This document shows positions 10,166-49,174 of a DNA stretch of 64,000 nucleotides, piece after piece. Under the pieces are notes generated by a model. It saw only the letters and a program-made list of their open reading frames with translations. It did no database searches and had not been told where the DNA came from. The first letter of the stretch is position 1, and every line of letters starts with the position of its first letter. This stretch comes from Takakia lepidozioides (Eukaryota > Plantae > Bryophyta), in assembly GCA_030704615.1 (NCBI GenBank), contig CM060733.1:17794001-17858000 (forward strand). Direction: 5' to 3'. The position numbers were made by a program, and so were the translations under genes.

Positions 10166-13100
10166 ATGGCGTAAATTACGGGTTGCAGATTAAGTACATA
10201 TGTAGGTGCGAGCAGGCGATGCGATGGCAGCTCTCTTGCACACCCCTCCCCGTTTGTTTCTGCAAGAATGGATGTGTAGCTTTGCTGCATGAGTGCCTGC
10301 TTCTTAGAAATATTCCCGGTGCCTTTGCCTTGTGGTCACGGCAATTAAGCTGTGAAGCTTGCTTGGCTGCATTGGATTCCAGCTCTGTTTTTCATTTCGG
10401 GAGTGAATGCTTACTGCTTTTAAAAGTACTCTTCTACAGGGTATGCCCAAATGCATGTGCCGTGTTGCAGATCGTGGTTGTGGCAAGCGATAATTGGTAC
10501 AGGAATGAGCTTAGCTTTCTTAGCACTATACAGGTGTTAAATGTGGGGTTGCGAAAGGTGCACTGGAATTAACAATGCCAGCATGGCTTTTTGGGCGGGA
10601 AAGGATTACGTGCATGCTTCGGACCCCATCCTGTTCCGTTTTATTTAGATAATGAGCTGAAAATTCCAAGAAGGATGTGGTAGACTTGTAACTTCATCCC
10701 TCCATGCCTGAGTCAGGAGGATTTCTGCATCTTTCGGTTTTCATCAAATTTGATCCCACTGAAGATCGATGAATAGCACAGTAATTGGTCGCTAGACTGA
10801 TCTATTCTAAACTGGCTGGACAGGGTCAATTTTGTCAGGTCTCCAGTAATTCAATCTCTCGAGGTCCAACGGCAGTACATTTCTCGACTGTGCAAGATCC
10901 CAAACATTTTCTCAAAGCAGAGGTTCCTTTTATTTTGCGCAGCATGGCACCCAGGTAGTTTTGAACAATCTTTTTGGAATAATTGAGTTCGGTTCAATGG
11001 CATAGTATTCACAAGAGGGGTAGGCAGGGTGAGAGAGCAGTACATCGTGCATATTGTGCTGGCATTTTACAGGGAACTTAAGCAAGTTATGAGGAGGACG
11101 TACGTATAGATATGGACTTCTAAGTAGGGGTATTGTGTGGAAAAGATGCTGGATTATGCTGGTGCTGATAATTTTCGAAAACAAAGGGTTAGAGAAGTTA
11201 AGGTGAAGCCATACTTGAGTGTGTTAAGCAAGATTTGATCTGGCCCTCTACCAAGCAAGGCATCAGTTCTCAGTTCGGACAATTGCTTTCCGCAAAAATG
11301 CTGACCATCCAGCCGAGTGTGATTCCTGAATAAGAGGTGTGGGTGGATTGACAGCTTGTATCCCAGTCCTCATATGCTCAACTCGAAATCAGAGTGTCCG
11401 CCACTTTTTGATGGCACAACCAGGTCAGATAAAACTTCACCTATTTTCGTTTCATTTTTTCATGGTGCTAACCACGTTGTGAAGGGCAACACCCAACAAT
11501 TTGGTACACTTTGTTATTCTTTGCAGACACCGAATTTTCTGTGTGTGATAATGTACATCTTCCATCACGTGACATGAAAAGCCGCTTCCTTCCCATCTAC
11601 TGCTTACATTTGGGAGAAGGCATGCGTGATGGATGGAAAGCTAACTTCTTGGGGTGCGGGTGGGACTAGGCTATACTACAACGCCTTATCTTCCTATGCA
11701 CAGCGAGTCTGTGTCGCTGTTAACTACAAGGTTTGTCTTACTTTTCAATTTTGATATGAAGTGACTGCATACCGAGTGCTATGTTCAATGATTCTCTGAA
11801 GACAGGCCTTGGATTTAAGGTTGGTCTCTCCATTATTTAGGATAGTTCCAAGGGCTTCCAACTTTGGGAACCTTGGCATTTTGGCACAGTTGAAGTCTAC
11901 AAAGCTGCTGCATATTGATTAGATGTGCTGTGAAATTTTGCTTGCCTTCGTGGAAATTTATGGTATTGTGCTAAGATTAGGTGTGTCAGGCTTCGAGAAA
12001 CAGAAGAAGCTGGTATCCAGTGTTCCATTTTCCAGCTACATATGGTTTTGTGAACTGTTGACTTCAAGCAAAGCTTAGATTGCGCTGTAATTATGGACCT
12101 CTTAGGCGAATGGACAGTGACAAAAAACACACACTGCAATTGTTTCTGAGTACACTTGACAGCTTTGGGAGAAGTAACAATAATGTTGTTTGAAAGCAGT
12201 TTACACACCTGAGACTCATGTGGGAAATGTGGGGATGGATATAGGGTCTCAAAGACATTGAATTTGTAGAAATCAACCTTGATGACAAGCCCATTTGGTT
12301 CCAAGCAAAGGTTTACCCTCTTGGCAAAGTATGCACTCTTATCTCTGTTTTCATCCCAGTCCCCACTTTGTCAGGATCGATAGCTGTTCACTTTGCAGTG
12401 GCTCTTGTCTCTCTTTACTCTAGAGGAACCATGGGATAGAGGCAATGGATGTTTGAGGGAGGGCAAGCTGTGTTTTGAGCTGTGTGTGGATTGGCAGGTT
12501 CCAGCACTGGAGCACGATGGCAAAGTGATGGGTGAGAGCCTTGACTTGCTTCAATACCTGGACAAACATTTTGGAGGGCCACTTCTGTACCCTACAGTAC
12601 GTAGATGTTCCTGCCTTCCCTGTCGTGGTGACTTTTAACACGCTTGTCGTCCTATTGCACCGTTATTTTAAATATGGGTTAAGGTCCTTCTGCTTGGGTG
12701 TTCTCAGTCCATCCAGACTGCTTCTGAGTACTTTTGATTTGAGTGGCGATTAATCGAGCAAAGACCAACTGCAAGTTCGGTTGAAACTAAGTTCTTGGAA
12801 TTGATAACCTCCTTGAAGGCAAGGTTGTTGCAGGAGGGGGATAGTGGTCGTTCTCTCATTAGTATACCCCTGACATTGTGTCAGAAAATAGATATTGTCT
12901 TGAACAGGCTGCGTGCACCTCGGGCTTTGACAATCCCCCTGTCCTCTCTGCATCTATTTACTATACAAAGGTGGACTCCCCGCCCTGAGTGTCAAAATCA
13001 GTCTATTTTGGAGGGTGGGTAGGCCCCTCAGAGTTCTTGTGTGCATGGTTGGGTGCACAGGAAGAGGCCAAGAAAGAGGCAGCAGCAGAGCTGCTAGAGT

Positions 13101-15899
13101 ACACTGACACGTTTAATAAGGCAGGCTTCACCATCCTGAGCCTGAAGGATGCTGCACCATCGCAAATACATGAGGGTATAAGTAAGTTCAGTGTGCTTTC
13201 TTCCCTTTTCAGTTTGGTGGATATGTATGTGGAGGACAACTATTATCACCTTAGGTGCGAGGGGAGGAGCAAACAACCGGGCAATATAGATGCTGAAGAA
13301 GAACCTTAAACTCGCAGTCAATGCTATACTTGCTTTCCTTCACTCCTTGCACCTCACCACAATCAGAACCATCACAGCACTCATCCTCAACAAAGGAAAG
13401 TGAAAAATTGATGTCACATAGTTCGGTCGTTCACAATAAGGGGGTAGTACCTGGGAGTGGAAGAGGTTCTCATTTACGCTGGCTCCGGCTGGCGTCATCT
13501 CATGCTCTCTCTCTGGAGGACAGCTGTTTGGATGTAGCCTTCCAAACGGCTTCGTAAGGAGATGGTAAGTGTGGTTTCTCTTTCTAGTTCTAATGTCAGC
13601 AAATGTGCAGTGGTAGCATTCAACGACAGAGGAGAGGGAGGAAGTGATCTTAAGTGGCAGTGGGGTAGCCAAGAGATCCCGGTCCTCCCTACCTACACTT
13701 ACCTGGGTGTTGAGTTCTCCTCCAATTGTAATTGGGATGCACATATCTGGAAAGTTGTTCAAACTGGCAAGGGCAAAGCTCTGGGGCTCACTAAATTTTT
13801 CCACTGCAGAGGGGTCAACTCTGAGGTTAAGAAAACCATGCTTTGTCGCGTTATTAGACCTGCCTTGGAGTACGGATCTGCTATATGGTTGTTTGATAAC
13901 TCCAACCAGGCTAAGTCTCTAGAATCCATTCAAGTGGGGGTGGCTTAAGGAGTGTATGTCAGCATGCTCCAAAACAGCCAATGTGGCTGTTCGGGGTGAG
14001 TTTGGCATTCCGTCCTTAAGCTCCCGACGAGATGAATTCAAGGTCAGATGGTGGGGTCAGCTGCAACATATGCCCAACACCAGATATCCTAAGTTAATCG
14101 ACTCTATATCTTGGAAACAGGACCGCCCTGTCAAACAGGGTAAGTCCTGGCAGAAGAGAGTAGAAGAGATCTCAAGGACCTGGACCTGGATCCGCAAGTC
14201 TTGACCCTGCTGGATAAATCTGACTTAGAGGCTGTAGGTCCCAGCCATGTCTGTTTCTAGTTATTTGGAGCTTAGCTGATTGATGACATCTGCTGTATGT
14301 CAGGTCCTGCGCTTGATTACATAGAAAATGCACTTGGGAAATATGCAAATGAAGGACCTTTCTTCCTCGGCAAGTTTGGTGTGGTGTGTATGCGATGCCT
14401 TCACCTTTGGGATATTTTTTACTTACATTTCCATGGCAAAGTCTAGCAAGGTCCTGCTGTAGCCTTTTGGCCGTAGACCCGGTGCCCAGTTTGGGAACCG
14501 ACACTACCTTTGGTAGGGGCTCACTTGGGACTTGAGGTGATATAACAATAAGTTAGGGCTTTCCAGATTTCCTCGAGAGAGCCCTTCACACAAGCATCAA
14601 TCTGCTGCATGTGAGCTTCTCAGCAAGTAGACCCTAAGAGGGTCAGGGCTTTACGCTCAGCCTGAAAGTTAGGGAACAGAGGTGCAGTGAGTACGTTCTT
14701 GATGGTCCTGAAGAGGGTTGCTCATTGATGAGAATACCCCTTGTATCAGAAAATGGATATTGTTTTCCTGCAGCCCCCCCGTTCAGTCCAGTGCCAAGGG
14801 TAGTTAGGCCCCCTTCAGCGAGGGAGAGAGGCCCTTCGAGAGAGAGAGGAGAGGGAGGAGAGGTGAAGGTTGAGAGATTTCCCAAGGTTCTGATATGTTG
14901 TTGTTTCAAAACTGGATGTGGGGTGGTTTCATCTTCTCAGAGAGATTATATAGTGAGAAAGTTTGTAACGTCCACTGGAACCTCTGAAAGAAAGGGATGA
15001 GCCGAAGGGGTTATCTCTGCTGGCTTGCAAGGTTAATGTCATATCCAGGTTTTCATGGTCCTTCTCCATTGCTTTGATGCAGGTGGATGTTGCATATGCG
15101 CCATTTATTGAACGGTTTGGAATTGCACTCCCCGGGATTAAAAACTATGACATTGCAGTTGGGCGACCAAACCTTACCAAGTGGATTGAGGTAAGGAATC
15201 TAGTCCTGCCGAAATCGTTGTTGATAGATACTTCATCTCTGAACATTTCTTTTTTCTCTGTCTCTCTTTATGGCTTTGATACAAGAAAGAAAATGCTCTC
15301 ATTTCTCTTTTCTTTTACAATGTGCCCTTCTTTTGTTTCCTTTCCAGCCCGCCGCACTAGAACCAAGTAACGCCTGTCCCCTAGTTTCTGTTTGCATGTG
15401 GGCTCTATAACTGCCATGTCAAGCATCAGATAACTAAACAATTAATCTCTTCTGTGAGTTCTTTCCAGCCCACTCTTTCTGTGATGTTACACTAGGTGTC
15501 AGCCTAAGGTCTTCAGAATGGGGTACTGATGTGGGTGGGAGTATAGGCTGTGAATAAGGTGGAGGCATATACAACCACAAAAGTTGATCGCAACATTCTA
15601 CTGGATTTGTTCAAGAGATTGCTGGTGAGCTGCCACTAAATTTGGAAGGCGCACATTAGAAAGCAGTTTCTAGGATCTCATTTTGTCACCTTGTAGTGCT
15701 CATATGCGATAGAGGAGAGAGAAGACCTGGCCCCCCATTGCTTGGTTTATCATGTTTGAGATTTTCGTGGAGGGGACCTGTGCATGTAAGTTGTTTAAGA
15801 AGATATGTTGAAGGCTTGCAGGAAAATGACTACTTCAAGAAGGCAGGGATGGTTGAGGACCGAACCCAAACCACCCCAGTACCTGTAGCTAGCACATAA
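10166..15899 (+). CDS. GSTL: Lambda-class glutathione S-transferase, copy C, 10 coding exons, 260 aa
   Basis: Exons 10166-10170, 11355-11423, 11670-11730, 12245-12328, 12498-12596, 13061-13181, 14304-14383, 15083-15190, 15547-15624, 15822-15899. Same exon sizes as copy B and an open frame. Confidence 0.88.
13590..14255 (+). mobile_element. Young internal LINE RT fragment inserted in intron 6 of GSTL copy C
   Basis: Nearly identical to 35025-35689 and absent from copy B. 13-bp target duplication TCTCTTTCTAGTT (13577-13589) / TCTGTTTCTAGTT (14250-14262). Confidence 0.9.
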
Positions 15900-16899
15900 T
15901 CCAGATTTTGTGCTGGATTGAGTGGATTGTAGAAAGAAAGTAAGGTGGGGTGATCATAACCTCGTGGATATGAAAGATCATGGCGAGCTTGCTCTCAAAG
16001 GTAGTTTTTAGATACATACCCAGTATGACCCAGTATGAACTGGGATATGCGACCAAACAATCAAGTTGCTTTAGTCAGAAGACCCAAATATCGTACTTTT
16101 TGCTCCAGAGCCTGTGGCTTGTACTTGATTCTTTGTCTTTATGTTGTGTAAACATGGTTAGCTAGCCATTGATTGCTCGAAAAAAGGAGAATGCTTCATG
16201 GGAAGAGTATGCTTGGCAGAATATTTGTGGGAGAAGAAATTAACTTACGTGACTGAAAAAGAAGGTAAGAAAATAGGGACTACACAGCATGATCTTATAT
16301 GTGGTTGTTATCTTTGCAAATGAAGATAATCATGACTCGTGTAAGAATTTTCACTTCCAAAACAAGTCAAGAGTCGTCGACCAGATCATCTCCCTCGACA
16401 GTCCATGTTTATCTTGACGATGTGGTGGACTCCACCACCCTCACCTCCCTCATTTGGAAGAGGCTATACAAAATTGAGAGGAGAGTTGGTCCTGTAATGC
16501 AAAAACGAGGCTCTTAAACGTGCTCACAAAGTCAAGTCAGTAATTTAGACATTGTACTGCCGCAGCGGAAGAGAAAATAACACGACATCTTTCTATTCCG
16601 AGATCTGATCATAAATCTTATAAATGCACATTTCCTACTGAGATGCTCATAATATCTGTTGTGCATGCCTGAGTGTGGTTCATCGGGCACTTTGTCATCT
16701 TTGACATCCTTTTTGGCATTCAGAACGATCAGTCCATCAGTTAGCCTTTCCCAAACTACTTAAACTAACCCCTTTGCGTAATATTCAACAACACAATCTA
16801 ATGTCTTTCTAACTGACCTTTGGTACAGCGTTGAACTGTCATTTTCAGAACTTAATAGCTCTTCGCCAGCAAGACTGTTCTTTCCAATCTGAAGTGTCC

Positions 16900-19702: not shown

Positions 19703-21354
19703 ATTATATTCAGTTCCCTTCAGATTTATTACTTAGATATATTCACTTCAGCTCTATTATATTCACTTCTCTTCCATTATATTCAGTTTCTCTTCACATT
19801 TATCCCTACGATTTCATCACATTCAATTTTATCTTTTCGCATTTGTTCCCTGCATTTAGTTTATTATTTTTTTCACAGACTTTGCATTACATAATAACAT
19901 TACGGTTTTACAGTCAAACCTAGATAATTGTTATGCTCCAAGAGTATAGAATATATAAAATTTAGGCAGTTATATCAAAAAAACGGTAAAACAGGCTGAA
20001 ATCTTAGAACATAACTATTAGAAATATAACATTAAATGAGGTCAATCAGATGCAAGATAACATTTAATGAGATGGCTGAAAATATGCGTAATGTCTATTT
20101 GCTGGCAGTTCGCCTGCTTAGCAAGATGCAATTTTTTTCTCCATGGATAAATATTTTGAAAGAGCAACAAACCGTTTCTGCAGTCTTTTTGACCTCAGAG
20201 TAGTAAGAGACTGAAGGTACATATCAGGTTACTAATTCTTCTTCATCGTCCTCTTGGATTTCTTCACTTGGTGCGACCATGTCCCATATTTTTTCATCTG
20301 TCGGTTCAAATGGCTTAGATCAAAGTGAAATTGATCTTCAAACTGAAGTAGTGATAAAGATGACGCATCTCTGGGTGGACATCATTTTAAGTGAATGTTA
20401 ACTTAACTTAACTGAGTGCTAAGTGGGTGTGTTACCAACTTGAGGGGCTGTTATTCATGGAGGTGATTTGTTAGTGGTCAAAACAGATTATTCCTTATTT
20501 GATCCAACTAGTTTAGAGGTGTATACTGAATGTAACAATTAGAGAGGTGCTTTAACACAGAGGAGAGTAGGTAGTCAATAATAAATACCACTCTTTTTGT
20601 CATTCTTAGTGTATATTTTTACAGAGTGGGAAATCATAACATTTATGATGATATAACAAAAGAAAAGGTAACATTTATCAGGGTTGACTGTAGTACGCAA
20701 AGTGAAAGCGAGCTTTGTTAAAAGAAAACTGATTGCAAGCCTCATTGCCAACATCTGCAATGAGGCTCTGCAATCTGCAAACTATGACAGTTTGGGAGTT
20801 TACCAAAGTGAGATGTGCGACAAGTCATCCCTACATTTGGACTATAACTTAAAACATTCAATAGTTAGTCATTGCTCGACACTTGTATATTTAAGATTTT
20901 TGTCAAAATGATAGGTAGTATGTTAATGTATGCCCAGTTTGGAAAGATTCATAGTTACTTTATTTCTACTTTTTATACATGCAGCTAGTCGGCGTAAGTA
21001 AGAGCCACTTCACCTTGCAGCTAGTGTCTCCTTGTAGGGGTGGGCCATATGAAGAAAGTGGGCCCGTATCCAAGGTACGTAAGATACCAATGGTGGATAT
21101 GCCACCATAAGATAGTTTTGTATCCGACCATACCAAATTATTATAGTATACAAATTTTCAGTCAATACTCTTACAGAGGTATCATCTAGAAATAGAAACT
21201 ATGTCTGTGGGTCTACCAAAGGCATGTCACACTCTTATCAATCAATATTATTACAGAGGTATCATCTTGAAAATGAATCAATGTTTGTTTCTCCTCTCCC
21301 GGAGGTATATCAAACTCATATCCATTAACACTCCAATAGAGGTACCATATCATA

Positions 21355-21519
21355 TGTTGTGCGCATACATATCGCTACACAACTACATCGCTGTCTAAAA
21401 CCACACAACACATGTGCACGCCACACACTAGTCCACCACTAGTCCAACCACTAGGCTACAACTAATCAGTCACTAGGCTGCCACTATGCTGCCCACTATG
21501 GCAGTCACTAGTCCACACA
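21355..21519 (-). repeat. Terminal repeat B2 (165 bp), 3' end of the element
   Basis: Direct repeat of 21850-22034. Ends ...CA in element sense, next to the TSD CATA. Confidence 0.92.
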
Positions 21520-21520
21520 A

Positions 21521-21847
21521 TGATAAAGAAGCAGAATACAAGCACAAGCTCATGCGAACTCACAAAGCTGAAGCATAAACTCATGCATATATAAACTCAT
21601 CACTCAAATACAAGTCAAGCCAAGTGCACCCCACGCCATGGGGAATCCACACTACGGCGCCATAGCTAGGCGCGGTGAGGCTCAACTCGAGAAAGATGAG
21701 CCTCTCGCGCTTGCCGTGAAGATAACCACTCCAGGGCCTAAATCTGCCTTGACCCCTGGATTGACACTTGGGCCAATCCCAAATGTCAATATGTAAAAGC
21801 TAGCTATTTCTTAGCTAATTTCATACTAGTTGTAAAATAACTCGACA
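21521..21847 (-). repeat. Repeat A2 (327 bp)
   Basis: Direct repeat of 31934-32260. Confidence 0.95.
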
Positions 21848-21849
21848 GC

Positions 21850-22034
21850 TGTCGTACGCATACATATCGCTACACAACTACATCATTGTCCAAAACCACA
21901 CAACACATGTGCACACACACTAGTATACCACTAGTCCACCACTAGTCCAGCCACTAGTCCAACCACTAGGCTACAACTAGTCAGTCACTAGGCTGCCACT
22001 ATGCTGCCCACTATGGCAGTCACTAGTCCACACA
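21850..22034 (-). repeat. Repeat B1 (185 bp), immediately after the polypurine tract
   Basis: Direct repeat of 21355-21519 with extra CCACTAGT units. In element sense it is preceded by AGGGGGGCG-AT and starts TG. Confidence 0.92.
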
Positions 22035-22036
22035 AT

Positions 22037-22045
22037 CGCCCCCCT
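22037..22045 (-). other. Polypurine tract (plus-strand primer)
   Basis: AGGGGGGCG followed by AT and the TG start of repeat B1, downstream of the integrase stop. Confidence 0.75.
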
Positions 22046-22294: not shown

Positions 22295-23560
22295 CTATCC
22301 CAAGCAGTGTGGACATAACCAATCTCCATCAGGAACCCTCTCAAGAGGTGATGTCAAGCATCCCATATGCCAACCTCTTGAGCATCGATCACACACCAGC
22401 ATGGTGGCTGCCCCTTTGACAAACCCACAGAGCATGCACCTCAAACCTGCAGGTACCACTTCCAAGTTTGGGTCAACTCTGCCATCGACATTGGGAAGGT
22501 GACATGGCGCACAATTACGCACATGGTCTTTCCAAGTCATGTCATCCCGACCCTCCAAGATCAGGACTCCTGAGGGCAACACCTCTCGAACCCTCAGAAT
22601 AACACGCCCTGCAGTGACATCCAGGGTCATAGGAGCAGTTTGCTGCAAATAAACATAGTCACCCGGGCTAAACCGCCGAACCCCAGGACGATATCCTCCA
22701 CCACGTATAGTGGCATACCTCAACGTATCACGGTGTTGTGCAATGGCAAGGTTCTCAAAAGCCATAGGCATGACTTTCTTGAACAACTCTGCACGCTGAT
22801 CACATGCACGTACCCACACGTCCGGATCGTCAAGGTTAAGGACTTGAGCAGTGTCCCTACGAATGGCTGCAGGCAAATCCGGCTCTCGGCCAAAGAGAAG
22901 GAAATATGGTGAGAAGGAGGCAAGTGATGCTTGTTTGCTGAACCTGTAGCCCATGGCTAACCAATGCACCTGAAGATCCCAATCTCCTAGGTGTCCCTTT
23001 TGCAAGCCATACTTGCGCAAACCCCTCTTCACCGTCTGAACAACTCGCTCTGCCAAGCCATCGGCCTCAGGATGATCCCGAGAAGTGGTGCGGTGGTCTA
23101 TCAAGGCTTTATCATACAAAGCCTCAAACTCCCCCAAAAACTCTCTCCCTTGGTCCGTGAGTATCTCAGCTAGAGCACCGAATCGGCTAAGCACACGATC
23201 CAAGAATGCATACGCAACCCCCTCACTAGCCTTGTCAGGCAATGGAACCAACTCAATCCACTTGGAGAAGTGCTCCACCATTTCCAACACATATCTGTGG
23301 TGGCGCATAGTCAGTGGCAACGGTCCTGCAAAGTCAAGACTCCACCTGTAGCCCAATCCCATGATTGGTAAATGATGCAACTGTGGTGTAGGGGCGTTGA
23401 ATGAAGCACGCACCCTGTCACACACCATGCACCTAGCCACGAACTGTTGCACCTCTGTATGCATACCACGCCACCAATACTGCCCCTACAGTAAACTGTG
23501 AGTACGTCGCACTCCAAAATGCCCCAACTCCTCATGGGCATGTCGTACTAACCGTGCACG
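22295..23560 (-). pseudogene. DDE integrase with C-terminal PHD finger
   Basis: HHCC (HEELGH...CMVC); DDE triad SLDFAG / TDQG / AERVV; PHD C4HC3 CMLC..CDRC..WH..C..VPDGDWLCPHC at 22298-22438. Confidence 0.93.
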
Positions 23561-23852
23561 CTGTGTGGGATGAGGCACAATCCTCACCCCGACCATCCTC
23601 CCATACTCGGAGCAGGTGTATCCTCCCACTTGAACCTCTTGGCTCGTTGCAGGATCCGATCCCTCTTCTTGGCAGTCACAGTGGCTGCCGTGTCTCCAGT
23701 ACGGAGGTAGTCCAACACAGCCGAATCCTCATGTATATCTCGGGTACCACCTGACTCATCACTAGCCTCAGGGTCCTCAGACACTCCGTCATCCCTGTTG
23801 TAGGTCCAACCTGACCTCCCGATGCCAAGATACACAAAAAAACAGATGCATG

Positions 23853-25412
23853 TCATCCCGGCACCATCTCCTCGTCCGTCTCACCATGCCACCAAGCTCC
23901 AGTGTCATCTTGTTGGCTCGTGCATGGATTGCAACTCAATCCATCCACATCCCGATTGACCAAACCCGGTCGATGCACAACTTGAAAGTCATACTCTTGG
24001 AGTATGAGTGCCCACCGTGCAAACTTCCCCGTAAGCTTGTCTGACTCCATCATCCATTTGAGTGGCTGATGATCCGTGACAAGGGTGAAGAGATTTCCAT
24101 ATAGATAGCACCTGAAGTGTGTCACTGCAGCTAAGCACTCTCCCTCATATGAGCTGTACTTAGCCTCTGCAACGTTGTTCGAGCGACTAACATAAGCCAC
24201 TACGAACTCTCTTCCCTCATCATCCACCTGTATGAGCACCGTTCCAAGCCCCAGCATGCTCCAATCCGTATGCAGCTGAAAGGGACGTCCCCTGATAGGT
24301 CGTCTTAGGATAAGCGCCGAGGTCAACCTCGCCTTGAGCTCTTGAAAAGCTCGTTCCTGCTCATCTTCCCACTGCCACTCCTGGTCCACCTTGGTCAGCT
24401 TGGTTAGAGCCTTCGCAATGGCACTAAATCCCTTGATAAACCGTCTATAATAGTTTGCCAACCCCATGAAAGCTCGAACTCGGCTCATATCCGTGGGGCG
24501 TGGAATTTGTGCAATGGCCTCTACCTTAGTCTGCTGTACCCCTAATCCTCTAGGATATATCATGTGACCCAGATACTCAATCTGGTTGTGGAAAAACTTG
24601 CACTTCCCCGGATGCAACTTCAATCCGCGTGCTCTCAAGCGCTCCAATACCACCTGAAGGTGTCTCTCATGCTCCTCCATCATAGCACTAAAGATGATGA
24701 TGTCATCTATGTAGCACCGAGCAAAGTCCACCCCTGCTAGAATCCTATCCATGACTCTCTGAAACTCTGCAGGAGCATTCTTAAGCCCAAATGGTAAGAA
24801 CCGCCACTGATATAGGCAATCATTGCCGTGTTCATTGATCCCCCATAATGTTGTCTTCTGCTTGTCCGCCTCCTTGATCGGCAACTGGTGATATCCAGAT
24901 CGTAAATCCAAAGTGCTAACGACCTTAGCATGCCCGATGACATCAAAAATCTCCTCTGGTGTTGGCATGGCATACTTATCGGACTTGGTCTGACGATTTA
25001 CAGGCCGGTAATCATCGCACATACGTCTCTCCGTCCAATTGCCATAGACACCCTTCTTGGCTGGCATCACTGTGGCTGAAGCATACTCTCCACCAGAGAG
25101 CTCCACCAAACCAGCCTCCCAGAGATCTTGAGTCCTCATCTGAATCAAAGACCTCTCCATGTCACTGTATCTATAGGGTCTCCAAAAGATTGGCGTGTCA
25201 GTGGCCAACTCAATATGAATCTCTTGACCCTTCAGTGCTCCCAAGTCCTTCAAACTGAAGGCAAAGCAATTCCTATAAGCCCTCAGGAACCGCCGTATAC
25301 GTCGTCTCTCTCCTCCGGTGACAATGGGTCCAATGTCAGGCTCCCAATTGTCTTCCGTAACTGCAACCTTAAGTCCAGTGGGCTTAGAGGTAGAGGACGC
25401 ATCCAGTGGTTG
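23853..25412 (-). pseudogene. Reverse transcriptase plus RNase H of the DNMT-gypsy element
   Basis: [38 protein letters not shown]; RNase H LHTDWS, YEGECLA, TDHQPL, DGLS. Confidence 0.95.
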
Positions 25413-25699
25413 TTATATTGCAACCTCTTGAGTAGTACTCCCTGCCTGCTTAGTCAATGACAAAGCCTCATCCTGCCCCATCATCTCATCCTCGAGGACT
25501 TCCTCAACCCGAGAAAAATCCCCAACCTCATCCATCACCGCCGCCCTGGCTGCCAACTCCCTCTGAACCTCGAGCACCTCCCACGTGTGCCACGGATGCC
25601 TGCACCCCGTGGTCCTCTCATGCTCACCCCCACTCACTGCCTGTACCGTCTCGGTAGGCAGAGAGACCATCGAGGGAAGTGTACTCGGCACTCTGCGTT

Positions 25700-26660
25700 G
25701 CTCAGCCATAGCCAAGCTGATAATCCAGGTCAAGCAATTGGGATCCATTGCTGGCCCCAACACCTGACAACGTGATGCCTCAGAAAGAGACGGCACCGCT
25801 ATGGTACCAGTGGTAAAACCCATTGCCCGCTCACGCTCGTCAGCATTAGGCTCCACTAACTGCTGCAACTGAGCATCCCATAGGATGCCAGGTCCACTAT
25901 CCCGGAAAGCATGCGATCCTGGGAAGCTGAGCAGTGTAGGTAATGCTGCTCGTGGTTGACCACTGCCAAAGGCGAACGGTCATCGTGTCTCACACGCTGA
26001 GACTGCCTCCCTGTGTCCAAATTACTATCCACTGTGAGGTGTGCTGGTCACTGCACCCCATCAAATGCACGCTTGAGTAGTGTGGGTGGCATCAAGTTAG
26101 TCCACCATAGCCGGGGACAATGAGCCCGTGACCCCACTGCAGCTGCATCTAGCAACACTGCTGACCCAAGCCACGACCGGACTTGATGCACACTGGCCAT
26201 CACCTTGCCCCGAGAATCGCCCATCAGTGGCACATTCTCCAAGATATGTGCTGGAGATACAGCTTGATGAAGCTGCAAGTGGCGCAAAACCGTACCATCT
26301 CCCAAAGCAGACCCAACCTCAAGTCTCGCAATCCATTGCCATGCCCGGCTGATGAATGCCCTTGGCAGGGCCAACCTACCACTACCACATCAATGGAGCC
26401 AACCCGCTCCAAATCTTGTGCCCCCAGCAACGAAATGTCTACTGGCTAGGCCTGCTGATATCCACGAACTGCAGACACCGGCAACAACTCAAGGTACTGC
26501 TGCACCAACTGAGCAACATGGCGAAGTGAAATGCGTCGTGCAGTCTCATCCCTCTCCACATACAGGTAACGCCGAACTCGTATACTTGCCTGTAACACAG
26601 CAGCCAATCCGGTGCTGATCCCGCCAAACAAGTCCAGAAGACAAATGCCTTCATCCGGAT
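25700..26660 (-). pseudogene. C5 cytosine DNA methyltransferase domain (DNMT3-like) inside the polyprotein, interrupted by stops and frameshifts
   Basis: Motifs in linear order: I LLDLFGGI, II YLYVE, IV DVVVVGWPCQGHS (catalytic PC at about 26365), VI ILENV, VII LLDAA, VIII RAHCPRLWWTNL, IX EPNADERERAMGF, X RCQVLGPAMD. Confidence 0.88.
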
Positions 26661-27165
26661 ACTGCCAGACGATCGGTGTGGTGTCCAATGGTGACAACTG
26701 AGGTGGTCCTGGTGCAATCCCCGCACTGTCCTCCTCTCTTGACGGTACAAAATCCTCTACCCAGGCTTGTTGCACCCGTCGATCAGCAACCCACTGCAAA
26801 TCCTTGCTCGAGCCCCACAATGGAGTCTGAGCAACCATGGCAGACAACTCCGCCATACCATACATGTCAACCTGCTCTCCTAGAGGTGTGTCATCCTCCG
26901 AATGAGCGTTGCCCTCAAGCAACTCTCCAGGCCAACTCACTGCAGCTGTGAATGCTGCTAGTGTCGGCATCTTGCCCCGCTGGGCAACCGCAACTCCTCC
27001 TATGAACGTCACAGGGAGCTGCACACACCGGCCCTCCCCTGACTGCCATCTAGGCCTATAGGAAGCTGACTCCTCCCAAAAATCCAGGGTGAAGCCCATG
27101 GGGTACAACACTGCCCCACCAACCATGACATCGTACGAGACCGCGTCTGTCACAATGGCCTTGGC

Positions 27166-29557
27166 TCACATCACTGAGCCATCTGTAGGGTGATCCGGCC
27201 GTAGTCTGATAGCCAACTCACGCCGTGTCATGCCCCGAGCCTGCTCCGATCCTCCCAGAAACGTCTGTATCTGGAAATGACAAGGCTCCATATCCGCCTC
27301 CGTGAGGCCCAAGCCTGCAATAGCAGCTCTGCCCAACATCAATGGCTGAGCTCCCGAGTCCAACAAGACCTGTAGTGGCCGGTACCTCTTGCCTACCGGT
27401 CCACTCAAACAGAAAATGTCATCCTGGTTGTCTAACATGACAACTCCAGGTGTCACCATGGCACGCTCAATGGCTGGCCTAGCTGGCAGCTCCATCAACC
27501 TGGCAGCTGTAGCTTGCCATGGCGCCGCCGTGGCAGTCTTGACCCTCAAATCTGAGGATCCCTCCGGCACTACACCTCTCACTATCTCCGCAGAAGATGA
27601 AGTAACCTCCCCACTCTCACAGAGTATAGCTGCCAGCCTGAACACCTCAATTGGTCTTACCCCCGGCGTCGCAATCATGGTAGCCGAGAACAATGGAGCC
27701 TGACACACAGATGTGGCCGCTCCCAGCAGCACACTAGCTGCCGTAGCCTTGACAACACTAGGTAGTGGTACTACCCGTGTAGCTCTCCCCAATGGCATGG
27801 TAACCTCCGCCTCGGTAACAGTCGGGCGAGAACTAGGTGCCATGGATGGCGTCGACACTGTCTCCGCCAATGTGAATGATTGAGGAAGCCTAGCCTGACG
27901 ACTTGCCTCCCCACGCTGTGGATCCAACTCCACCTCTGCACCTCGTGGCTTAGGAACTCGTGCTGCTCCTCGAGTCACGGCTGCAGCAGACTCCACCTGC
28001 ACTAGTGGTAGTGCTGCTCCGCACATGAATCCCATGCCTCCCATATCTCCTCCCTCAGGAGCAAGAGGTGGACCATCCGGCCTTGGAGCCGGTACCACCT
28101 GAGCTGTAGCCGTGGCAGCGAGCCTTTGCTCTAGCTGCTGAAGCCGGTTGGCCATGCCTTGGTTAATACCCTGACCTCCGCGTCCTTGGCCATGTTGAGC
28201 TTGCCCTTGGCCTACACCTCGTGCCTGGCCACCTCGTCCTCTCTGGGCTGCCCCACCTCGCCCCCGGCCACCATTGTTCCCTTGGAACTGGCCTGGGCGC
28301 AACTCAGGATGCAAACCATAACACTGGGCCTCTCCATGCCCGTGCTTGCCACAATGCCGACACTGCAGCTGTGCAGGCTGTGCATATGCTAGCCCTTTGC
28401 CTCCCTCTGGGCAATCCTTCTTGACATGGGGTCCTCCACATGTCCAACACACCACCTCTGCCCGTTGTTGGCCTACAAATGAACGGAGAGACCCCTGCAT
28501 CTGAGGTCCTCTCTGTCCTTTCCTGGGCTTCACCTGGGCCCCCTTGTTGTCTTGAGGACGTTGAGGTAGTGGTTGGCTAGGAGCACCACTACTCCGTTGT
28601 GTCTCCTTAGCAAATCCCACCATGACCACTCGTTCCTCTACCATGTTGAGCTCTATCCGCTCTGCCAGCAAAAACACATTTGCTAAAGTGAGTTGGGCCG
28701 CTTGTAGGAGAGTTGCATCCCGCACCCTCCTCCTCAGCTCCTTGTTCAATATCCCATACCAGAATTGGACTGCCTGAGCTTCTGTAACCCCTTGGGTTAC
28801 ATTTATCAAGCGCCTCATGCGAGTGAAAGCCTCCCTCAAGCTCTCAGTAGGCTTCCGTTGGAACTCAAGCTCCGCAACTTCTCTGTCCTCACCCCTTGGT
28901 AGTTCCCTCTCACTCTTCGAAGAACTCCACAACAAGGTTGAAGGCAGGCACGGGTACTTGTGCTGGTGCGGTAGTGGCTTGGGTGGACGTCGTAGCTACG
29001 GTATCACCAGTCCCACTAGTCCCACTGCTACTTGCTGAAGCTGTCGGTGCAGCGGCAGGTGTAGCCACTGCCCTCGTGGCTCTAGTGCCCCTAGTGATGG
29101 AGACATAGTTGGGTGACCAGTACATCCTCCACTCCTCGCTCTCAACCTCATGCCCCCGCCTGAACTCATGGTAATCATCCATAGGCGGCCCCTCAAGGTG
29201 CTGAAACAGCCCCTTCCATGCCATGAAAGGCGTAAATAGTTGTGGATTGCGCATTTGCTGCAAATCACACCAACTATCAAACTCTTGGATAAAATCATCC
29301 AACTCGATGGTGCCCACCGCCCCAGAGTACCTTCGTGGGCCCTTGGTAGCTCCATACATCTTCTCCATTGTGTCCCACAACAATGGCAAGGAAACAACTT
29401 GCACCGCCGGTGCGAGTTCTCCTGATTCACAATCCGAATCAGAACCTTCCGTAGAAGACACAAGAGGTGAAGGTGGCCTAAACCGCACACCTCGTCTCGT
29501 GTACCCACTAGTATCGCTAGTGCTCAAACCGGCACTGTCCCCAGCAACTAGTGGCAC
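27166..29557 (-). pseudogene. gag plus aspartic protease of the DNMT-gypsy element (frameshift near 28920)
   Basis: Retrotransposon-gag-like region (FQRKPTESLREAFTRMRRL), two zinc knuckles CWTCGGPHVKKDC and CRHCGKHGHGEAQC, an RGG-rich tract, and protease motif LLDSGAQ at about 27350. Confidence 0.85.
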
Positions 29558-30254
29558 CTCCGTGTTGACAAACTGTCACTCAACCGGTCGTGAACATGTC
29601 CCTAACCCCCTCTCCACAAGATAACCGGGTAGAGAACCTGTTGCGGCTTATGATTTGGAATACTAGGTTCCTAACATAGCCTACACCTGCACCTGCATCC
29701 ACCGCAAGCACTCCTATGGTTGGCTGGTCATCACCTCCAACCTCACCATAGGAAAAACAATGATGGTCTGACTGGTCATCACCCCAGCCTCACCATCGAC
29801 AGCATGCTCTAGGACTGGCCGGTGATCAAATCCGGACCAATCACCTATAAAAACAAGCGCCCACACAAAACTAACATGGCGCACAGTCAAGCATGCAGGT
29901 ATGGAGGGGATCCAAACACAAGAAATCAGAACGACAACTCCCCCACACCAAAAACAACTTCATGGTGTTGCTTCTGCAAGGACACCCCAGCCCAAACCCG
30001 GACTGACTCTTGCCTCCATCTATGGAAAGGTCTTGGCATAATGAGAGGGTGAAAAACTACGAGGAAGAGAAGCTAAAGCGATGCCTAACCCCAGCATGCC
30101 CTCATCCCAACACTCTTTTTCTCATCTCTTCCCTCACTTGCATGACCATGGGAATATCATGAAGATACTCCTCAAACCGCCCTCCACGAGCTTCAAAATT
30201 CGGCCTTCAAGACCACATGCCAGTCCTTACGCAGTTCACCAGTGCCTCCACGAG

Positions 30255-30685
30255 TCAGCACAGGCCGTCCACAGGTCAACACGGGCCACCACAGACTAGC
30301 ACAGGCCCACACAGGCCACAGCCTGTCACAGCCCTACACAGGTCACAGGGTCACAGCCCCATAGGCCACAGCCTGTCACAGCCCGTCACAGCCCCCAAGG
30401 CCACAGGTCACAGCCCATCACAACCCCAAAGGCCACAGGCACATTCCTACAAAGGTCACAGGGGTCACAGCCCCAAAGGCCACAACCTATCACAGCCCCT
30501 CACAGCCCTACACAGGTCACAGGGGTCACAGCCCCAAAGGCCACAGCCTGTCACAGCCCCACAGGCCACAGGGCACAGCCCCTCACAGCCCATCACAGCC
30601 CCACAGGCCACCTATCATAGCCCATCACAGCCCTACACAGGTCACAGGATCACGGCCCTACCTGCCACAGCCCGTCACAGCCCCA
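30255..30685. repeat. Degenerate short tandem repeat array (CACAGCCC / GGCCACAG / GTCACAG units) in the element's 5' leader
   Basis: Dozens of imperfect CACAG-core units are directly visible. Confidence 0.85.
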
Positions 30686-31933
30686 TCCATATCTGGCCTG
30701 TTTGTGGGCCAATCGCCTATAAAATGTTGGACTGTTCTCTGTCATTTATGGACTTGGAACGCATTGGCGTCTGGGTCCTAATTTGATCCACAGAGGAACT
30801 GAAACAATTACCTGTATCAGAAGTTGTTGTGCAGTGATACGGGATTTTTTGTGCATCAAACAAATAGAGAGGGCCCAGGGGTCAAGTTGTTTGGTAGGTC
30901 CTTGTTGGGGGTAATATTTAATGGGTTGTGATGTTTTGCAGGCTACCACGTAATCAGATTTGAGGTGATATGTAACCAGATGGCAATGTCCGAGCTTCTA
31001 TTTCGAAACATGTTAGATGCTTCATCACTAAACAAGTGTTTGATAATCTCTAGTAATCTCTAAGGGCTAATGATTGACAAATGTGAATGGTCATGACTGG
31101 GACAGATGCGGAGTATTTGGAATGCCCGAAGGGAAGTCAGCCCTTCCCTCTTCCTTGCTTGCCCTCCAAGCTTGAAGATGGAAGCTTCAATGTGCTGCAT
31201 GCATGCTCCACATGCATCCTCTTCACACAAGAGGTAATATCAGCCCCCTATCTTGGCTCCTTGGCTCCTTGATGCTCTCTAAGACAAGACTAAGCACTCC
31301 ACAGCCTTTGCCAAGCTCCTGAAACCCTAAGGCTTACATTTCCAGCCACAAGACACTCCTCTTGTGGTGCAAGAGCTCTTCTTCCAAGCTCTAAAACCCT
31401 AGGTGCACATTCCATGGCCTTACCGCACCTCTTAGCTCTTGTTCCAGCCCTGCTCTTGCCATGACAAGAGCCCTCTCAATGCTGAAGCTCGAGATTGAAA
31501 CCCAATCTCAACATACTCCACAAAGTGCACTGATTTGCCCCAAGCCAAATCAGCCCTTTCGTTTGGTCTTGCAATCCTTCACACAATGAAAGCTCGCATT
31601 TCCAAGTCCAGTTCTCAGCTTTGCCACCAAAGCCACTATAACCTGCTCTTGACTGGTCCTCTTCCCAATCATGCTTGCTCATGCATGAACACAATCTGAA
31701 ATCATCAAGGTGCTCTGGAATTACCTGCAGCATGGTGTTTTCATCTCTGAAGCTGAAGATCGAATGCCAAGGTCTACCATTTCGTAACCTACACTGCCTC
31801 CACTTCTAACAACCAAGAGCTCCACGGTGCTCCTTGCATAACAACCTGGTTTCTCTCATTCTCAAGCAAAAAACACAAGTACTACAACTAACTCGTATCT
31901 GGCACTCACAGATACGAGCTCATCTTTCTCAAG

Positions 31934-32260
31934 TGATAAAGAAGCAGAATACAAGCACAAGCTCATGCGAGCTCACAAAGCCGAAGCATAAACTCATGTA
32001 TATATAAACTCATCACTCAAATACAAGTCAAGCCAAGTGCACCCCACGCCATGGGGAATCCACACTACGGCACCATAGCTAGGCGCGGTGAGGCTCAACT
32101 CGAGAAAGATGAGCCTCCCGCGTTTGCCGTGAAGATAACCACTCCAAGGCCTAAATCTGCCTTGACCCGTGGATTGACACTTGGGCCAATCCCAAATGTC
32201 AATATGTAAAAGCTAGCTATTTCCTAGCTAGTTTCACTCTAGTGGTAAAATAACTTGACA
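31934..32260 (-). repeat. Terminal repeat A1 (327 bp), 5' end of the element
   Basis: Direct repeat of 21521-21847 with about 14 substitutions counted by eye. Confidence 0.95.
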
Positions 32261-33084
32261 CATACAATTTGCGCTGCAGAGTAGCATGGGGAAAAAAAAA
32301 AAAAAAAAAAAAAAAAACTAAATTAAAATTGAAATGAGCGACCGCTGTGGGACCGCTGTGGACCGCTGGGGACGGCGGTGGCAGCTGCCGCCTTGGATAG
32401 ATCGTCTGCTGCACCTGAGAAAAACAACATATAAAAAATATTATTCTAAATTAAGTAGTAAGATTAAAAAAAAAACAAAAAAAAACAAGGCGACCGTTGT
32501 GGCGATCGCCTGGGAAATAATAATAATAAGTTAAATAATTCATAAAACAGATAAAAAGAATTAAAATAAGGAAAAAACAAAATAAATGTTCAGGAAAAAT
32601 AAAACCAAATTATAAAATATACTGGTTTATGTTTATGTTCCATGTATATGCCTGAATGTACATGTATATAACAACGACTTGTTAACAACCAGTAGTGGAG
32701 AAGCATATTTGGGAAGATGCTTTGGTTTGAAGCATCTTTTGGCACATCACGTTGATTTATTGAAGGGTGTAGATGTGGTCTTATGCTAGACACTTAGTGA
32801 ATACTTTTTGACCACATCTACACCCATAACAAACCCTGTCACACCCATAACAACTCGTTGTGAAGAACATCGCGTTGATGTTGTTAGGGTTGTGGCAGGG
32901 CTTGTTATGGGTGTGACAGGGACAACAACAGGTCGGAACAGGGACAGGGTTTGTGGTTAAAAAGTATTCCATACGGTTGCTCTCTGATGATCCCTGTCCT
33001 CCCTTCATCTGTTTGTTGGCCCTGCCTTTGTAAGGTAGAACTACGCAAAGGGTTTTGATGCTTAGCACCGATACTTGCAATTAA

Positions 33085-34152: not shown

Positions 34153-37100
34153 TTGTACTCATAAGACGTTGTTTGCCGTAGCCTTGTGGCCATTGACCCC
34201 GTGCCCAGTTTGAGCGGGAACAAAAGGGACAGAACCTACCTCTGTCAGGGGCTGACGTTGGTAGTAAGACTTACCTCCATATAAAGAATTAATCCGGATT
34301 TTCCAGATATCCTCTAGAAATCCCTTCACACAAGCATCAATCTGCTGAATGATCCCCTTTCGGCGACAGGGGGTCATTGTCAATCTATACAAGAAGGGTG
34401 ACAGAGAAGAACCGGGGAACTACCGTGGCATCACGCTCCTCAATGCTGTTGGCAAGACATTCTGCATAGTTATAAGTACTTGTCTCGAGGTTGATCTGGA
34501 GTCTAGAGGTTCTTTCCACGAAGGCCAAGCTGGCTTTCGGCGAAACAGGGGCTGCGTGGATCATATCTTCACTCTAAGCCAGATTATCCAGGGAAGGAAA
34601 AAAGAAGGGAAACCCACTTATGTCTTTTTCCTGGATGTCAAAAAGGCTTATGACACAGTGTGGAGAGATGGCCTATGGTTCCGCCTCTGGTCTTGTGGGA
34701 TCAAGGGAAAGATGTGGAGAGTTGTCCACAACTTGTATGCTCACACCAAAAGCTGTGTCACTGTTAATGGACAGAAGTCCAACTTCTTTGACATAGACCA
34801 AGGTGTAGCTCAAGGATGTACTCTCTCCCCTCTGCTCTTCAATGTTTTCATCAATCAACTCCTCGAGGATGTGGAAAGTGAGGGATTTGGGTTAAGGGTG
34901 GGTGATACCACCATACCAGCCCTTATGTTTGCGGATGACTTCGCAGGCATAGGGGAGACTCCAACCAATCTCTAGGAGTTGATTGATTGCGCGAAGAGAT
35001 ACTTTGATCTTTGGGGGCTAGAGGCTAATGTCAGCAAATGTGCAGTGGTAGCATTCAACGACAGAGGAGAGGGAGGAAGTGATCTTAAGTGGCAGTGGGG
35101 TAGCCAAGAGATCCCGGTCCTCCCTTCCTACACTTACCTGGGCGTTGAGTTCTCCTCCAATTGTAATTGGGATGCACATATCCGGAAAGTTGTTCAAACT
35201 GGCAAGGGCAAAGCTCTGGGGCTCACTAAATTTTTCCACTGCAGAGGGGTCAACTCTGAGGTTAAGAAAACCATGCTTTGTTGCGTTATTAGACCTGCCT
35301 TGGAGTACGGATGTGCTATATGGGTTGATAACTCCAACCAGGCTAAGTCTCTAGAATCCATTCAAGTGGGGGTGCTTAAGGAGTGTATGTCAGCATGCTC
35401 CAAAACAGCTAATGTGGCTGTTCGGGGTGAGTTTGGCATTCCGTCCTTAAGCTCCCGACGAGATGAATTCAAGGTCAGATGGTGGGGTCAGCTGCAACAT
35501 ATGCCCAACACCAGATATCCTAAGTTAATCGACTCTATATCTTGGAAACAGGACCGCCCTGTCAAACAGGCTAAGTCCTGGCAGAAGAGAGTAGAAGAGA
35601 TCCTCCAGGACCTGGACCTGGATCCGCAAGTCTTGACCCTGCTGGATAAATTTGACTTAGAGGCTGTAGTGTCCTCAGCCATGTCTGTTGCCATGAGATT
35701 GTCTGATGAAAATGAAGTTAGGCAGAAAACTTCCCTGAACTTGTTTCCAGTCTGTGACATGGGGGAGGACATCTTGGATGACCTCAAGGGTCTACCCACT
35801 CTCGGCACTAGACTGAATTTAAACTCAGGGCAGGAAGCCTACCTTTGAACAGCAAACAGAAGCAGAGAGGAAAGGGAAAGTGCAATTGCCCGTTGTGTGG
35901 GCAATTTGAAGACAATATTCATTTTCTGATACACTGTCCGGGGTTCTCTCACTAAAGAGACGCTCTCTTCAAATCTATTAAGGGAATTGTGCCTGTACCC
36001 CTGTTTACCAACTTTGAAAGTCTCGAGGCTGAGCCAAAAGCCCAGGCCCTCCTGAGGCCTAGTTTTTGGGCAAATCACACAGTCTTCCAGATAAGGTTAA
36101 AGAGGAGAACTAGGGCCTCTATCATGCGCCGAAAGGGGATCATTTCAGTCTTCCAGATAAGGTTAAAGAGGAGAACTAGGGCCTCTATCATGGGATCGCC
36201 ACCGTGCTTGATAAGCTCGTTGACAATACCATCAGGTCCACCAGCTTTATATCCATTTAAATGTTCAATTGCTTCCACAATCTCAGAAGAACTAATGGGA
36301 GCATTATAAGCCATTGAAATATACTCCAATTCATCAGGGCTGTTTTGAATCATAGGAACAATTTTTCCAACTGCGTCCCTCCATTCAGCAGAAGACCCCT
36401 CACTGTTAGACCTAGAAGTTCTGCCAAGGATACTGTAGTGAGTTTCAAAGGTTTTGACAATGTCAACCGATGAAGTCACCACTGCACCTTTAGTAGTCTT
36501 CAGCGCTTGTACTTGCTGACCGTTTTTCGGCTTGTACAAACGTTGAAGGGCCAACCAGAATTTCTTGTCATTACCACCATGGTGGTTTGAGTTTATGTCA
36601 CTGTATAACTTGTTCCAGTATAATTTCTTCTGAGACCTAACAAGCTGATTGATATCTTTACGGAGCTGGTAGTACCTCGCCCACAATTCTCTGTTGGTTT
36701 CCAAATTGCAGCACTCTTTATAGAGGGCTCGTCTCTCAGCTATCTTGAGTTTAATCTCATTAGTCCACCAATTAACTGCTCTACCGCAGACAATTAGTTT
36801 CCTCCCAATGATCTTGTCAGCCACGGAGGAAACGAAACTCTCCCAAGAGTCCACTGCTCTTGCGACTTCATTTCTTGCGTTAACAGAGCGTGACTGAAGT
36901 TCTTGGAGCGATTGGACAAAATGAGGGAGAGCCTCTTGCAAGGCCTGGACGTACTCAGCCTTGACCTCCTCATTGTGGAATTTTTCTATGCGCCACTTCC
37001 GAATCGAACGTTTCACAGAACTCTTGGTGGTGGGAAAACACCTTTTGATCTCAGTCCAAACCAGGAAGTGGTCAGAGGTACCAATATCAGTTCTGTCGAT

Positions 37101-38967: not shown

Positions 38968-39239
38968 GTTAAGGGAGAAAGAGAGAGGGAGAGAGAGGGA
39001 GAGCAGAGCTAAGATTGAGAGATTTCCAAAGCTCTAATCATGGTGTATGTTTTTAAAACATGATCTGGGGTGGTTTCATCTTCTGAGAGAGACTAGAAGT
39101 GAGAAACTTCGTAACGTCCACTGCAACCTCAGAAAGAAAAGCCTGATGAGTATAAGCAGTTATGTCTGCTGGTTTGTGACGTGCATGCTATTCCCTGAGG
39201 ACTTTATGATCCTTCCTGTCCATTGCTTTGATGCCCCAG

Positions 39240-48760: not shown

Positions 48761-49174
48761 ATGGCTATGGGCAGATTGCGCAGCTTGGGTAGCTCTATTC
48801 AGCGTCTCGTAGTTTCCCCCATGCCTGAAGCTGTTTCCTCTTTGCCATTTAGGTCTATGCACAGCAGCGTTCGTGTTTCTCCTGACATTGCTCGTTTCAC
48901 TCGCGGGTTGGTTCTTCCCTTCCGCACAATTGAGACAGCGGCCAATGTACCTCCAGCTCCAGGAAGCTCTCCGATTCCCCCGGAAGAAGAAGGTGGGGGA
49001 GACAAGGGATGGGCTGCGGTGGAAGGGGGAGAAAAGGATGTGGACGATGAGGATGAGGATGGCGATGGGGGAGAGATGAAGAACCCAGTGACAGGAGAGA
49101 TAGGAGGTCCTAGAGGGCCTGAGCCGACGCGCTACGGTGACTGGGAGAAGGGGGGCCGCTGTTCAGATTTTTGA
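48761..49174 (+). CDS. SDHAF4: Succinate dehydrogenase assembly factor 4 (DUF1674), 137 aa, intronless
   Basis: C-terminal [30 protein letters not shown] signature. Arg/Ser-rich presequence-like N-terminus from ATG 48761. Confidence 0.93.

Follow-up and report, generated by a model that had tools for sequence, protein, structure and literature searches.

A Ty3/gypsy retrotransposon family of mosses and liverworts with a DNMT3-like methyltransferase ahead of a conserved, predicted leaky stop codon

A 64,000-nt stretch of the genome of the moss Takakia lepidozioides (contig CM060733.1, positions 17,794,001 to 17,858,000; hereafter the window) contains a dead, decayed Ty3/gypsy retrotransposon that belongs to a family carrying a DNMT3-like C5-cytosine methyltransferase. 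This methyltransferase-bearing family is real, selected and widespread, and comparison of the window copy with its relatives indicates that the enzyme is a fixed, selected component of the family and not a one-off capture. The same comparison places the methyltransferase in the Gag-level reading frame, whether the downstream Pol is reached by readthrough, re-initiation or splicing, and identifies the stop codon at 25413 that closes this frame as a feature of the lineage and not a product of decay.

The element spans 32260 to 21355 on the minus strand (10.9 kb), exceeding the region 22295..29557 to which the first-pass annotation of this DNA had assigned it. That annotation described the domain content correctly; it overlooked the split repeats, the target duplication and the self-priming site, and gave little weight to the PHD finger. 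The element has the layout A1-coding-B1-A2-B2, with TATG duplicated at both flanks. Its coding parts lie on the minus strand, and the features below are read from high to low coordinates.

32261..32264, minus strand: target-site duplication TATG, 5' copy
31934..32260, minus strand: repeat A1, 327 bp, TGTC...TCA, 96% identical to A2
32099..32115, minus strand: part of A1 able to pair with the primer-binding site; predicted 5' terminus of the RNA (self-primer)
31917..31933, minus strand: predicted self-priming primer-binding site right after A1, without the tRNA-type TGG start
30244..30684, minus strand: tandem-repeat array in the 5' non-coding leader
27463..29575, minus strand: Gag with two CCHC knuckles, with a frameshift between about 29087 and 28866; start approximate
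27030..27462, minus strand: aspartic protease, LLDSGA, with weak Pfam matches (E 0.03-0.1) and a premature stop at 27168-27166
25700..26661, minus strand: DNMT3-like C5-cytosine methyltransferase, motifs I-X unpermuted, with two stops and two frameshifts in the window copy
25416..25699, minus strand: variable tail closing open reading frame 1 (ORF1)
25407..25415, minus strand: family-wide stop followed by CAA CCA, a predicted leaky (readthrough) stop at the ORF1/Pol border
23853..25412, minus strand: reverse transcriptase (RT) and RNase H (RH), the start of ORF2, then a stop (23855) and frameshifts (about 23787-23587)
22500..23587, minus strand: DDE integrase (INT) with HHCC zinc finger, stop at 23488
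22304..22438, minus strand: C-terminal PHD finger of the integrase (PF00628, 36 bits)
22036..22045, minus strand: polypurine tract right before B1; the same tract precedes B in most related loci
21850..22035, minus strand: repeat B1, ending in GACA, which with GC and A2 forms the palindrome GACA-GC-TGTC
21521..21847, minus strand: repeat A2
21355..21520, minus strand: repeat B2, the right terminus of the element; A2|B2 is the putative junction of two cDNA ends
21351..21354, minus strand: target-site duplication TATG, 3' copy

In-frame stops at 27168, 26448, 26050, 23855 and 23488, together with several frameshifts, show that the window copy is dead. Pfam matches on the minus strand cover RT, RNase H, integrase and the PHD finger. 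The order Gag-protease (PR)-RT-RH-INT and the DDE integrase are those of Ty3/gypsy elements, and the integrase bears its PHD finger where Tcn1/Tf1 chromoviruses have a chromodomain. One standard Ty3/gypsy trait, two like long terminal repeats (LTRs) with one at each end, is absent from the element.

All of the C5-methyltransferase motifs that had been reported between 25700 and 26660 were found there on the minus strand (I LLDLFGG at ~26640, IV GWPCQ at ~26375, VI ENV at ~26237, VIII ..PRLWWTNL at ~26115, IX ERERAMGF at ~25835 and X LG.AMD at ~25760). They are split over three frames by frameshifts near 26290 and 25955-25961 and interrupted by the stops at 26448 and 26050, and the first arginine of motif VIII is replaced in this copy. 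The reported continuity of frame also stood: reading through the stop at 27168-27166 joins the N-terminal part of the domain to the protease in one frame, and reading through the stop at 25415-25413 does so for the C-terminal part and RT. When the stop was read as X, the motif I-IV piece matched PF00145, the profile that the first-pass annotation had named as a check on its claim, with 29.9 bits (cutoff 22; E 5e-7). Alone, the remaining two pieces match nothing in Pfam, but a profile built from relatives gives them 184 and 149 bits. Six intact relatives score 35-54 bits on PF00145.

Profile searches and modelling support the assignment of an unpermuted DNMT3-like enzyme, distinct from the DRM type. 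Against solved structures, each of two family profiles placed DNMT3A at the top (67 bits for profile 1 and 91.5 for profile 2), followed by DRM (43 and 57) and HhaI (25 and 41). The fold was assessed on an intact relative (P0001) as a stand-in for the window copy; its structure model, with a predicted local distance difference test score (pLDDT) of 92.7, superseded an earlier one built from 15 sequences (pLDDT 49.7) and matched DNMT3A in Foldseek with an E-value of 3.6e-19 and a TM score of 0.83 by target length. The catalytic Cys is present in all 192 non-redundant domains examined, the Glu of motif VI and the Arg of motif VIII hardly vary, and the motif IV proline is replaced by E in 87 of the 192 with the Cys retained. 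Five phage methylases, which have the same motif VIII pattern as the family, reach 57-65 bits on profile 1 and 67-80 on profile 2; because these scores are close to those of DNMT3A, the profiles do not settle whether the domain was captured from a host DNMT3.

The methyltransferase had been taken as part of a single continuous Gag-Pol, with the stop at 25413 as a chance lesion of the window copy. The frame is identical on both sides of this stop, some distant relatives are fused, and the copy has, besides this one, a minimum of five stops and five frameshift zones. However, among 80 metagenome loci fetched, 48 were informative in having both motif IX and the RT start, and every one of these carries TAG or TAA there, at the corresponding codon of the RT frame. 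The 48 loci fall into 39 clusters and represent three subfamilies in addition to that of the window, which differ in spacing on either side of the stop and always keep the frame. The stop is likewise present in the host's own contigs: across 195 contigs from sequencing run X1, no variant reaches 3% at the stop or in the six bases following it, a check limited by the omission of rare variants from contigs. The stop at 26448, on the other hand, is absent from other contigs, and intact relatives read straight through the other breaks of the window copy. Conservation in 48 of 48 loci, set against a stop at 26448 that is not shared, marks the stop at 25413 as a feature rather than a lesion. A continuous Gag-Pol, with the stop as a chance lesion, is thereby refuted for this lineage and hardly credible.

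Protein ends agree with this boundary. Named ORF1 proteins of Marchantia and Calypogeia terminate at the matching place, 107-124 residues past motif IX. A further 15 Gag-PR-DNMT proteins from more distant relatives also lack RT and terminate 128-213 residues past that motif. Closterium-type relatives have DNMT and RT in a single frame, which makes a fused product natural. The bases 3' of the stop are also conserved: of 41 distinct junction strings, including that of the window, 39 read CAA-C(C/T)N (34 CAACCC, 3 CAACCA, 1 CAACTA and 1 CAACTC), and the other 2 are altered at the first base. The leaky stop of tobacco mosaic virus (TMV) is followed by CAR YYA, and UAA is likewise read through there, according to the portion of PMC2754532 available to us. 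The window stop and its CAA CCA fit this pattern, the difference being that the stop here lies between Gag-PR-DNMT and RT and that the main related subfamily has CAA CCC. ORF1 thus encodes Gag-protease-DNMT, and Pol is likely a readthrough product.

Comparison among subfamilies shows purifying selection on the methyltransferase. Median ratios of nonsynonymous to synonymous substitution rates (dN/dS) between the window copy and 20 related loci, for which dS is near saturation, were 0.10 for DNMT, 0.06 for RT-RH, 0.10 for integrase and 0.43 for the tail. The first-pass annotation had allowed that the domain might be an isolated capture or might evolve without constraint. The first concern is answered by the presence of the domain in family copies and relatives; the second is answered between subfamilies, and not among decayed peat-type copies, for which we return to the ratios below.

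The family is distributed well beyond Takakia. A search with the N-terminal piece identified 60 related proteins among 973 candidates, the best with 64-76% identity, including 19 from Marchantia polymorpha, 3 from Calypogeia fissa and 1 from Sphagnum troendelagicum, and the family profile matched 434 clusters at an E-value of 1e-30 or better. In an RT tree, the window element groups with Calypogeia, Marchantia and metagenome loci (support 0.94-1.0), a placement that by itself would point to a non-seed land plant as the likely host. Closterium-type and Klebsormidium RTs adjoin next, at weakly supported nodes and with three outgroup sequences only. The Klebsormidium RTs, which may or may not come from KnitGypsy-Dnmt3, the published element from that genus, are among the closest named relatives (43-49% identity).

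A second domain order, RT-RH-DNMT-INT-PHD, was found in 112 of 302 domain-bearing proteins, whose named members are from Haematococcus and a species with the EukProt label Chrzof1, which we take to be Chromochloris. Many of these entries (P0076-P0132 and many of P0196-P0328) form a large chlorophyte-type family in which a DNMT3-like domain separates RNase H from integrase and PHD is also present. One protein (P0131) combines PF00145 with PF05869, presumably a Dam-type adenine methylase, and has a weak RT match. In a midpoint-rooted tree of the 192 DNMT domains, 49 domains that lie before RT or are unplaced relatives of these separate from 143 that follow RNase H or are related to those (support 0.97). 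One capture, followed by relocation of the domain within the element, is a plausible reading of this tree, for which outgroups are few.

The termini and repeats of the element are as distinctive as its coding region. The A-coding-B-A-B layout was observed in the window and in two other loci (L033 and L052), and B-A-B 3' ends in two more (L010 and L061). All 7 elements for which both ends are present have TG...CA termini and a 4-bp target duplication, exact in 6 and with a single mismatch in the other, the duplications being TATG, AAGG, TCTC, TTCA, CACA, TGTG and RGTA. No tRNA gene was found in the window. The putative primer-binding site pairs with the predicted RNA 5' end within A1, forming 15 Watson-Crick pairs in 17 nt, a value reached by none of 100 shuffles. 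Pairing extends to 20 pairs in a second family of different sequence, and in 7 of the 16 elements it outdoes every one of the 100 shuffles.

The two halves of the B1/A2 palindrome GACA-GC-TGTC are the termini of the element, and divergence is equal for the two pairs of repeats (A1/A2 0.044, B1/B2 0.045). The A2|B2 joint is imprecise, with a remnant of the primer site in L039/L040 (one rearranged insertion) and of the tract end in L033. This A|B joint resembles joined cDNA ends, which suggests integration from a circle. Seven copies end after one B (L017, L020, L022, L025, L028, L031 and L047), and the three of these with both ends keep the target duplication; they may be recombination products or the result of assembly collapse. 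We considered single-B A-coding-B copies as one-LTR-circle insertions, and this was not established: a short copy (L020) and a full one (L061) have the identical 3' flank, which means that a short form may be generated once the element has inserted, or by the assembly itself.

The A1-B1-A2-B2 order is also that of PAT and Ngaro (PMC4157794, in the part available), and only a single orientation of the permuted product is observed. Both points are compatible with a scheme like that of PAT or Ngaro, both ends being copied from the internal B1-A2 joint, or with a polar step outside a two-LTR-circle model. We regard such an origin of the split repeats as unlikely, since the polypurine tract before B1, the priming site after A1 and the target duplications are marks of LTR elements, as are the imprecision of the A2|B2 joints and the remnants of primer site and tract that they keep. 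Furthermore, no tyrosine recombinase match was found in the 9 ORFs scanned, and the integrase is of the rve type.

Taken together, these observations lead us to propose, with a probability of about 0.58, that a Ty3/gypsy ORF1 encoding Gag-PR-DNMT ends at the conserved stop, that the enzyme is made at Gag level and packaged, that Pol is produced by readthrough, and that the enzyme methylates the element's own cDNA. Readthrough would occur at a few per cent, as at the CAR-YYA stop of TMV. Reverse transcription would be self-primed in the manner of Tf1 and yield a linear [B-A]-coding-[B-A] cDNA, the true LTR being B plus A. The ends of this cDNA would be joined, giving the A2|B2 joint, and integrase would cleave the internal palindrome GACA-GC-TGTC, producing the A-coding-B-A-B insertion with its target duplication. 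The cDNA would be CG-methylated within the particle, and the PHD finger would guide the choice of chromatin site. The position of the domain in ORF1 and its invariant catalytic residues favour an active enzyme inside the particle, and CG methylation we infer from likeness to DNMT3 and from the activity of SymbioDIRS-Dnmt3 in yeast. A broader reading, in which an ancient green-plant Ty3/gypsy lineage extending from chlorophytes to liverworts and mosses combines a de novo cytosine methyltransferase at capsid stoichiometry, readthrough Pol, self-priming, integration from an end-joined circle through cleavage of an attachment site within the repeat, and copies that arrive methylated, we advance only tentatively.

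A number of observations weigh against this proposal. For priming and integration, 9 of the 16 elements fail to beat every shuffle in the self-priming test, and the mirror product A-B-A-coding-B, which a symmetric circle should also yield, was seen in 0 of 18 loci with A1. For selection, dN/dS among decayed peat-type copies is 0.64 for DNMT and 0.42 for RT-RH (0.51 for integrase). For readthrough, the exact CAR YYA is present in just 4 of the 41 junction strings, the main peat-type subfamily having CAA CCC; most loci belong to one subfamily, leaving about four independent DNA lineages plus the protein ends; and RNA folding 3' of the stop gave z of -2.2 and -0.1, establishing no stable structure. 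The third codon past the stop is ATG in peat-type loci and CTG, GTG or TTG elsewhere, making re-initiation possible.

This last point bears on a different account of Pol, in which ORF1 simply stops at 25413 and Pol is made separately, by re-initiation past the stop or by splicing that removes it. In Ogre elements, a spliced RNA removes the stop. Some 40-odd of the peat-type loci have the ATG, the window, L024, L025 and L068 have a near-cognate NTG in its place, and Marchantia gene models splice over the junction; REXdb also describes lineages whose ORF1 carries GAG-PROT and whose ORF2 carries everything else, as far as the text of PMC6317226 available to us describes them. However, the ATG is not kept across subfamilies, whereas the CAA after the stop is, and the Marchantia models joining DNMT to RT, all of which leave out the junction, do so with differing borders. 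A Gag-less Pol would moreover require another path into the particle, and sister lineages are fused in frame. We consider a separate Pol improbable, more so than the alternatives concerning the repeats and the enzyme's target, and retain readthrough as the preferred route.

With regard to target, the CpG depletion that self-methylation might leave was not seen in the element, which has an observed/expected ratio of 0.49 compared with 0.29-0.44 in neighbouring repeats and 0.75 in another gypsy element of the window. In addition, a yeast assay of the retrotransposon DNMT from Klebsormidium showed no methylation, a result that its authors call inconclusive (PMC5890265, in the part available). Both results would also fit an enzyme that, once freed from the polyprotein, works on host chromatin or at the insertion site, or a domain serving as a DNA-binding module, as would the chlorophyte-type position between RNase H and integrase (112 of 302), beside a PHD-bearing integrase, and the E replacing the motif IV proline. 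A role confined to binding is at odds with the near-invariance of the catalytic Cys and of the Glu and Arg in motifs VI and VIII, and expression at Gag level would put the enzyme at the site of cDNA synthesis. We thus view a host target, or a binding function, as a possible but doubtful alternative to methylation of the element's own cDNA.

Elsewhere in the window, at positions 1-16000 and 39200-40130, a unit of 7.0-7.6 kb occurs three times and, in part, a fourth time, with 93-98% identity over many blocks; six ORFs of this unit had no Pfam match. A second gypsy-type element at 53800-56000 (+) has Gag, a knuckle, RT and RNase H, no methyltransferase seen, and higher CpG. Where its RNase H breaks off lies a 180-nt remnant (55994-56171, +) with 79% identity to the 5' end of the methyltransferase family's gag. 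Another reverse transcriptase is located at 34349-34975 (+; PF00078, 93 bits), and an ORF at 48509-49174 (+) with a terminal DUF1674 (PF07896, 63 bits) is a possible host gene.

These findings have several implications. The genetic model Marchantia polymorpha has close relatives of the element as annotated Gag-protease-DNMT genes, such as Mp_4g09160 (P0007), so the role of the enzyme is testable in a land plant; such genes also swell the DNMT counts of bryophyte annotations. Given the conserved stop, the enzyme would be a high-copy component of the particle instead of a minor Pol domain. The repeat anatomy points to a DDE integrase that uses a circular intermediate, ordinarily a dead end.

DNMT-bearing retrotransposons have been published only for algae and protists, with the benefit of the enzyme left open, according to the available text of PMC5890265, which also describes DNMT acquisition as specific to the K. 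nitens lineage and which later papers cite for such elements in 'streptophytes'. We found no description of such elements in land plants in the open-access literature; subscription papers, Repbase or bioRxiv supplements may describe the family. Several known systems share individual features with it. EpiLTRs/DAM-LTRs are likewise LTR elements uniting a DNA methyltransferase with a chromatin reader; they differ in having a DNMT4-related domain, DAM and a chromodomain, occur in Cymbomonas and Euglena, and are reported absent from streptophytes (bioRxiv 10.64898/2026.05.21.726589, in the part available). Tf1/Sushi and plant Tcn1 also place after the 5' repeat a primer site that pairs with the predicted RNA 5' end, but have ordinary LTRs and a chromodomain in place of split repeats, PHD and DNMT (PMC7175516, PMC6317226, in part). 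Foamy virus integrase similarly cuts a palindrome in a circular intermediate; its palindrome is the LTR-LTR joint and normal LTRs result, whereas that of the window family is internal to the repeat unit, with a permuted product (PMC1180852, in part).

Elements of the DIRS order (PAT, Ngaro) share split direct repeats with the window family (PMC4157794, in the part available), and not their tyrosine recombinase. Phygy, compared through its REXdb description, has an NCGN target duplication that the family's duplications do not match, and the CG...CG termini, 3-bp duplication and restriction to animals of Troyka do not fit either (PMC12440569, in part). Split repeats in Odin or Troyka elements found no support in the available text of PMC9040795 (0 matches) or PMC12440569. 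SymbioDIRS-Dnmt3 of Symbiodinium is nearer, with split repeats and a Dnmt3-like domain that methylates CG de novo in yeast; it has a tyrosine recombinase and a DNMT inside Pol, whereas the window family has a DDE integrase, a 4-bp duplication and PHD (PMC5890265, in part).

The closest published element is KnitGypsy-Dnmt3 of Klebsormidium nitens, which shares the Gypsy domain set, an unpermuted Dnmt3-like domain and DIRS-like A-coding-B-A-B repeats, and whose domain is under purifying selection (de Mendoza et al. 2018, PMC5890265, in part). By that text its DNMT lies in the Pol ORF, whereas in the window family the DNMT ends ORF1 before the conserved stop; PHD, target site and Marchantia go unmentioned in the portion available. 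The new parts are the occurrence in land plants, the conserved and predicted leaky stop, and the integration anatomy; the mechanistic steps are inferred.

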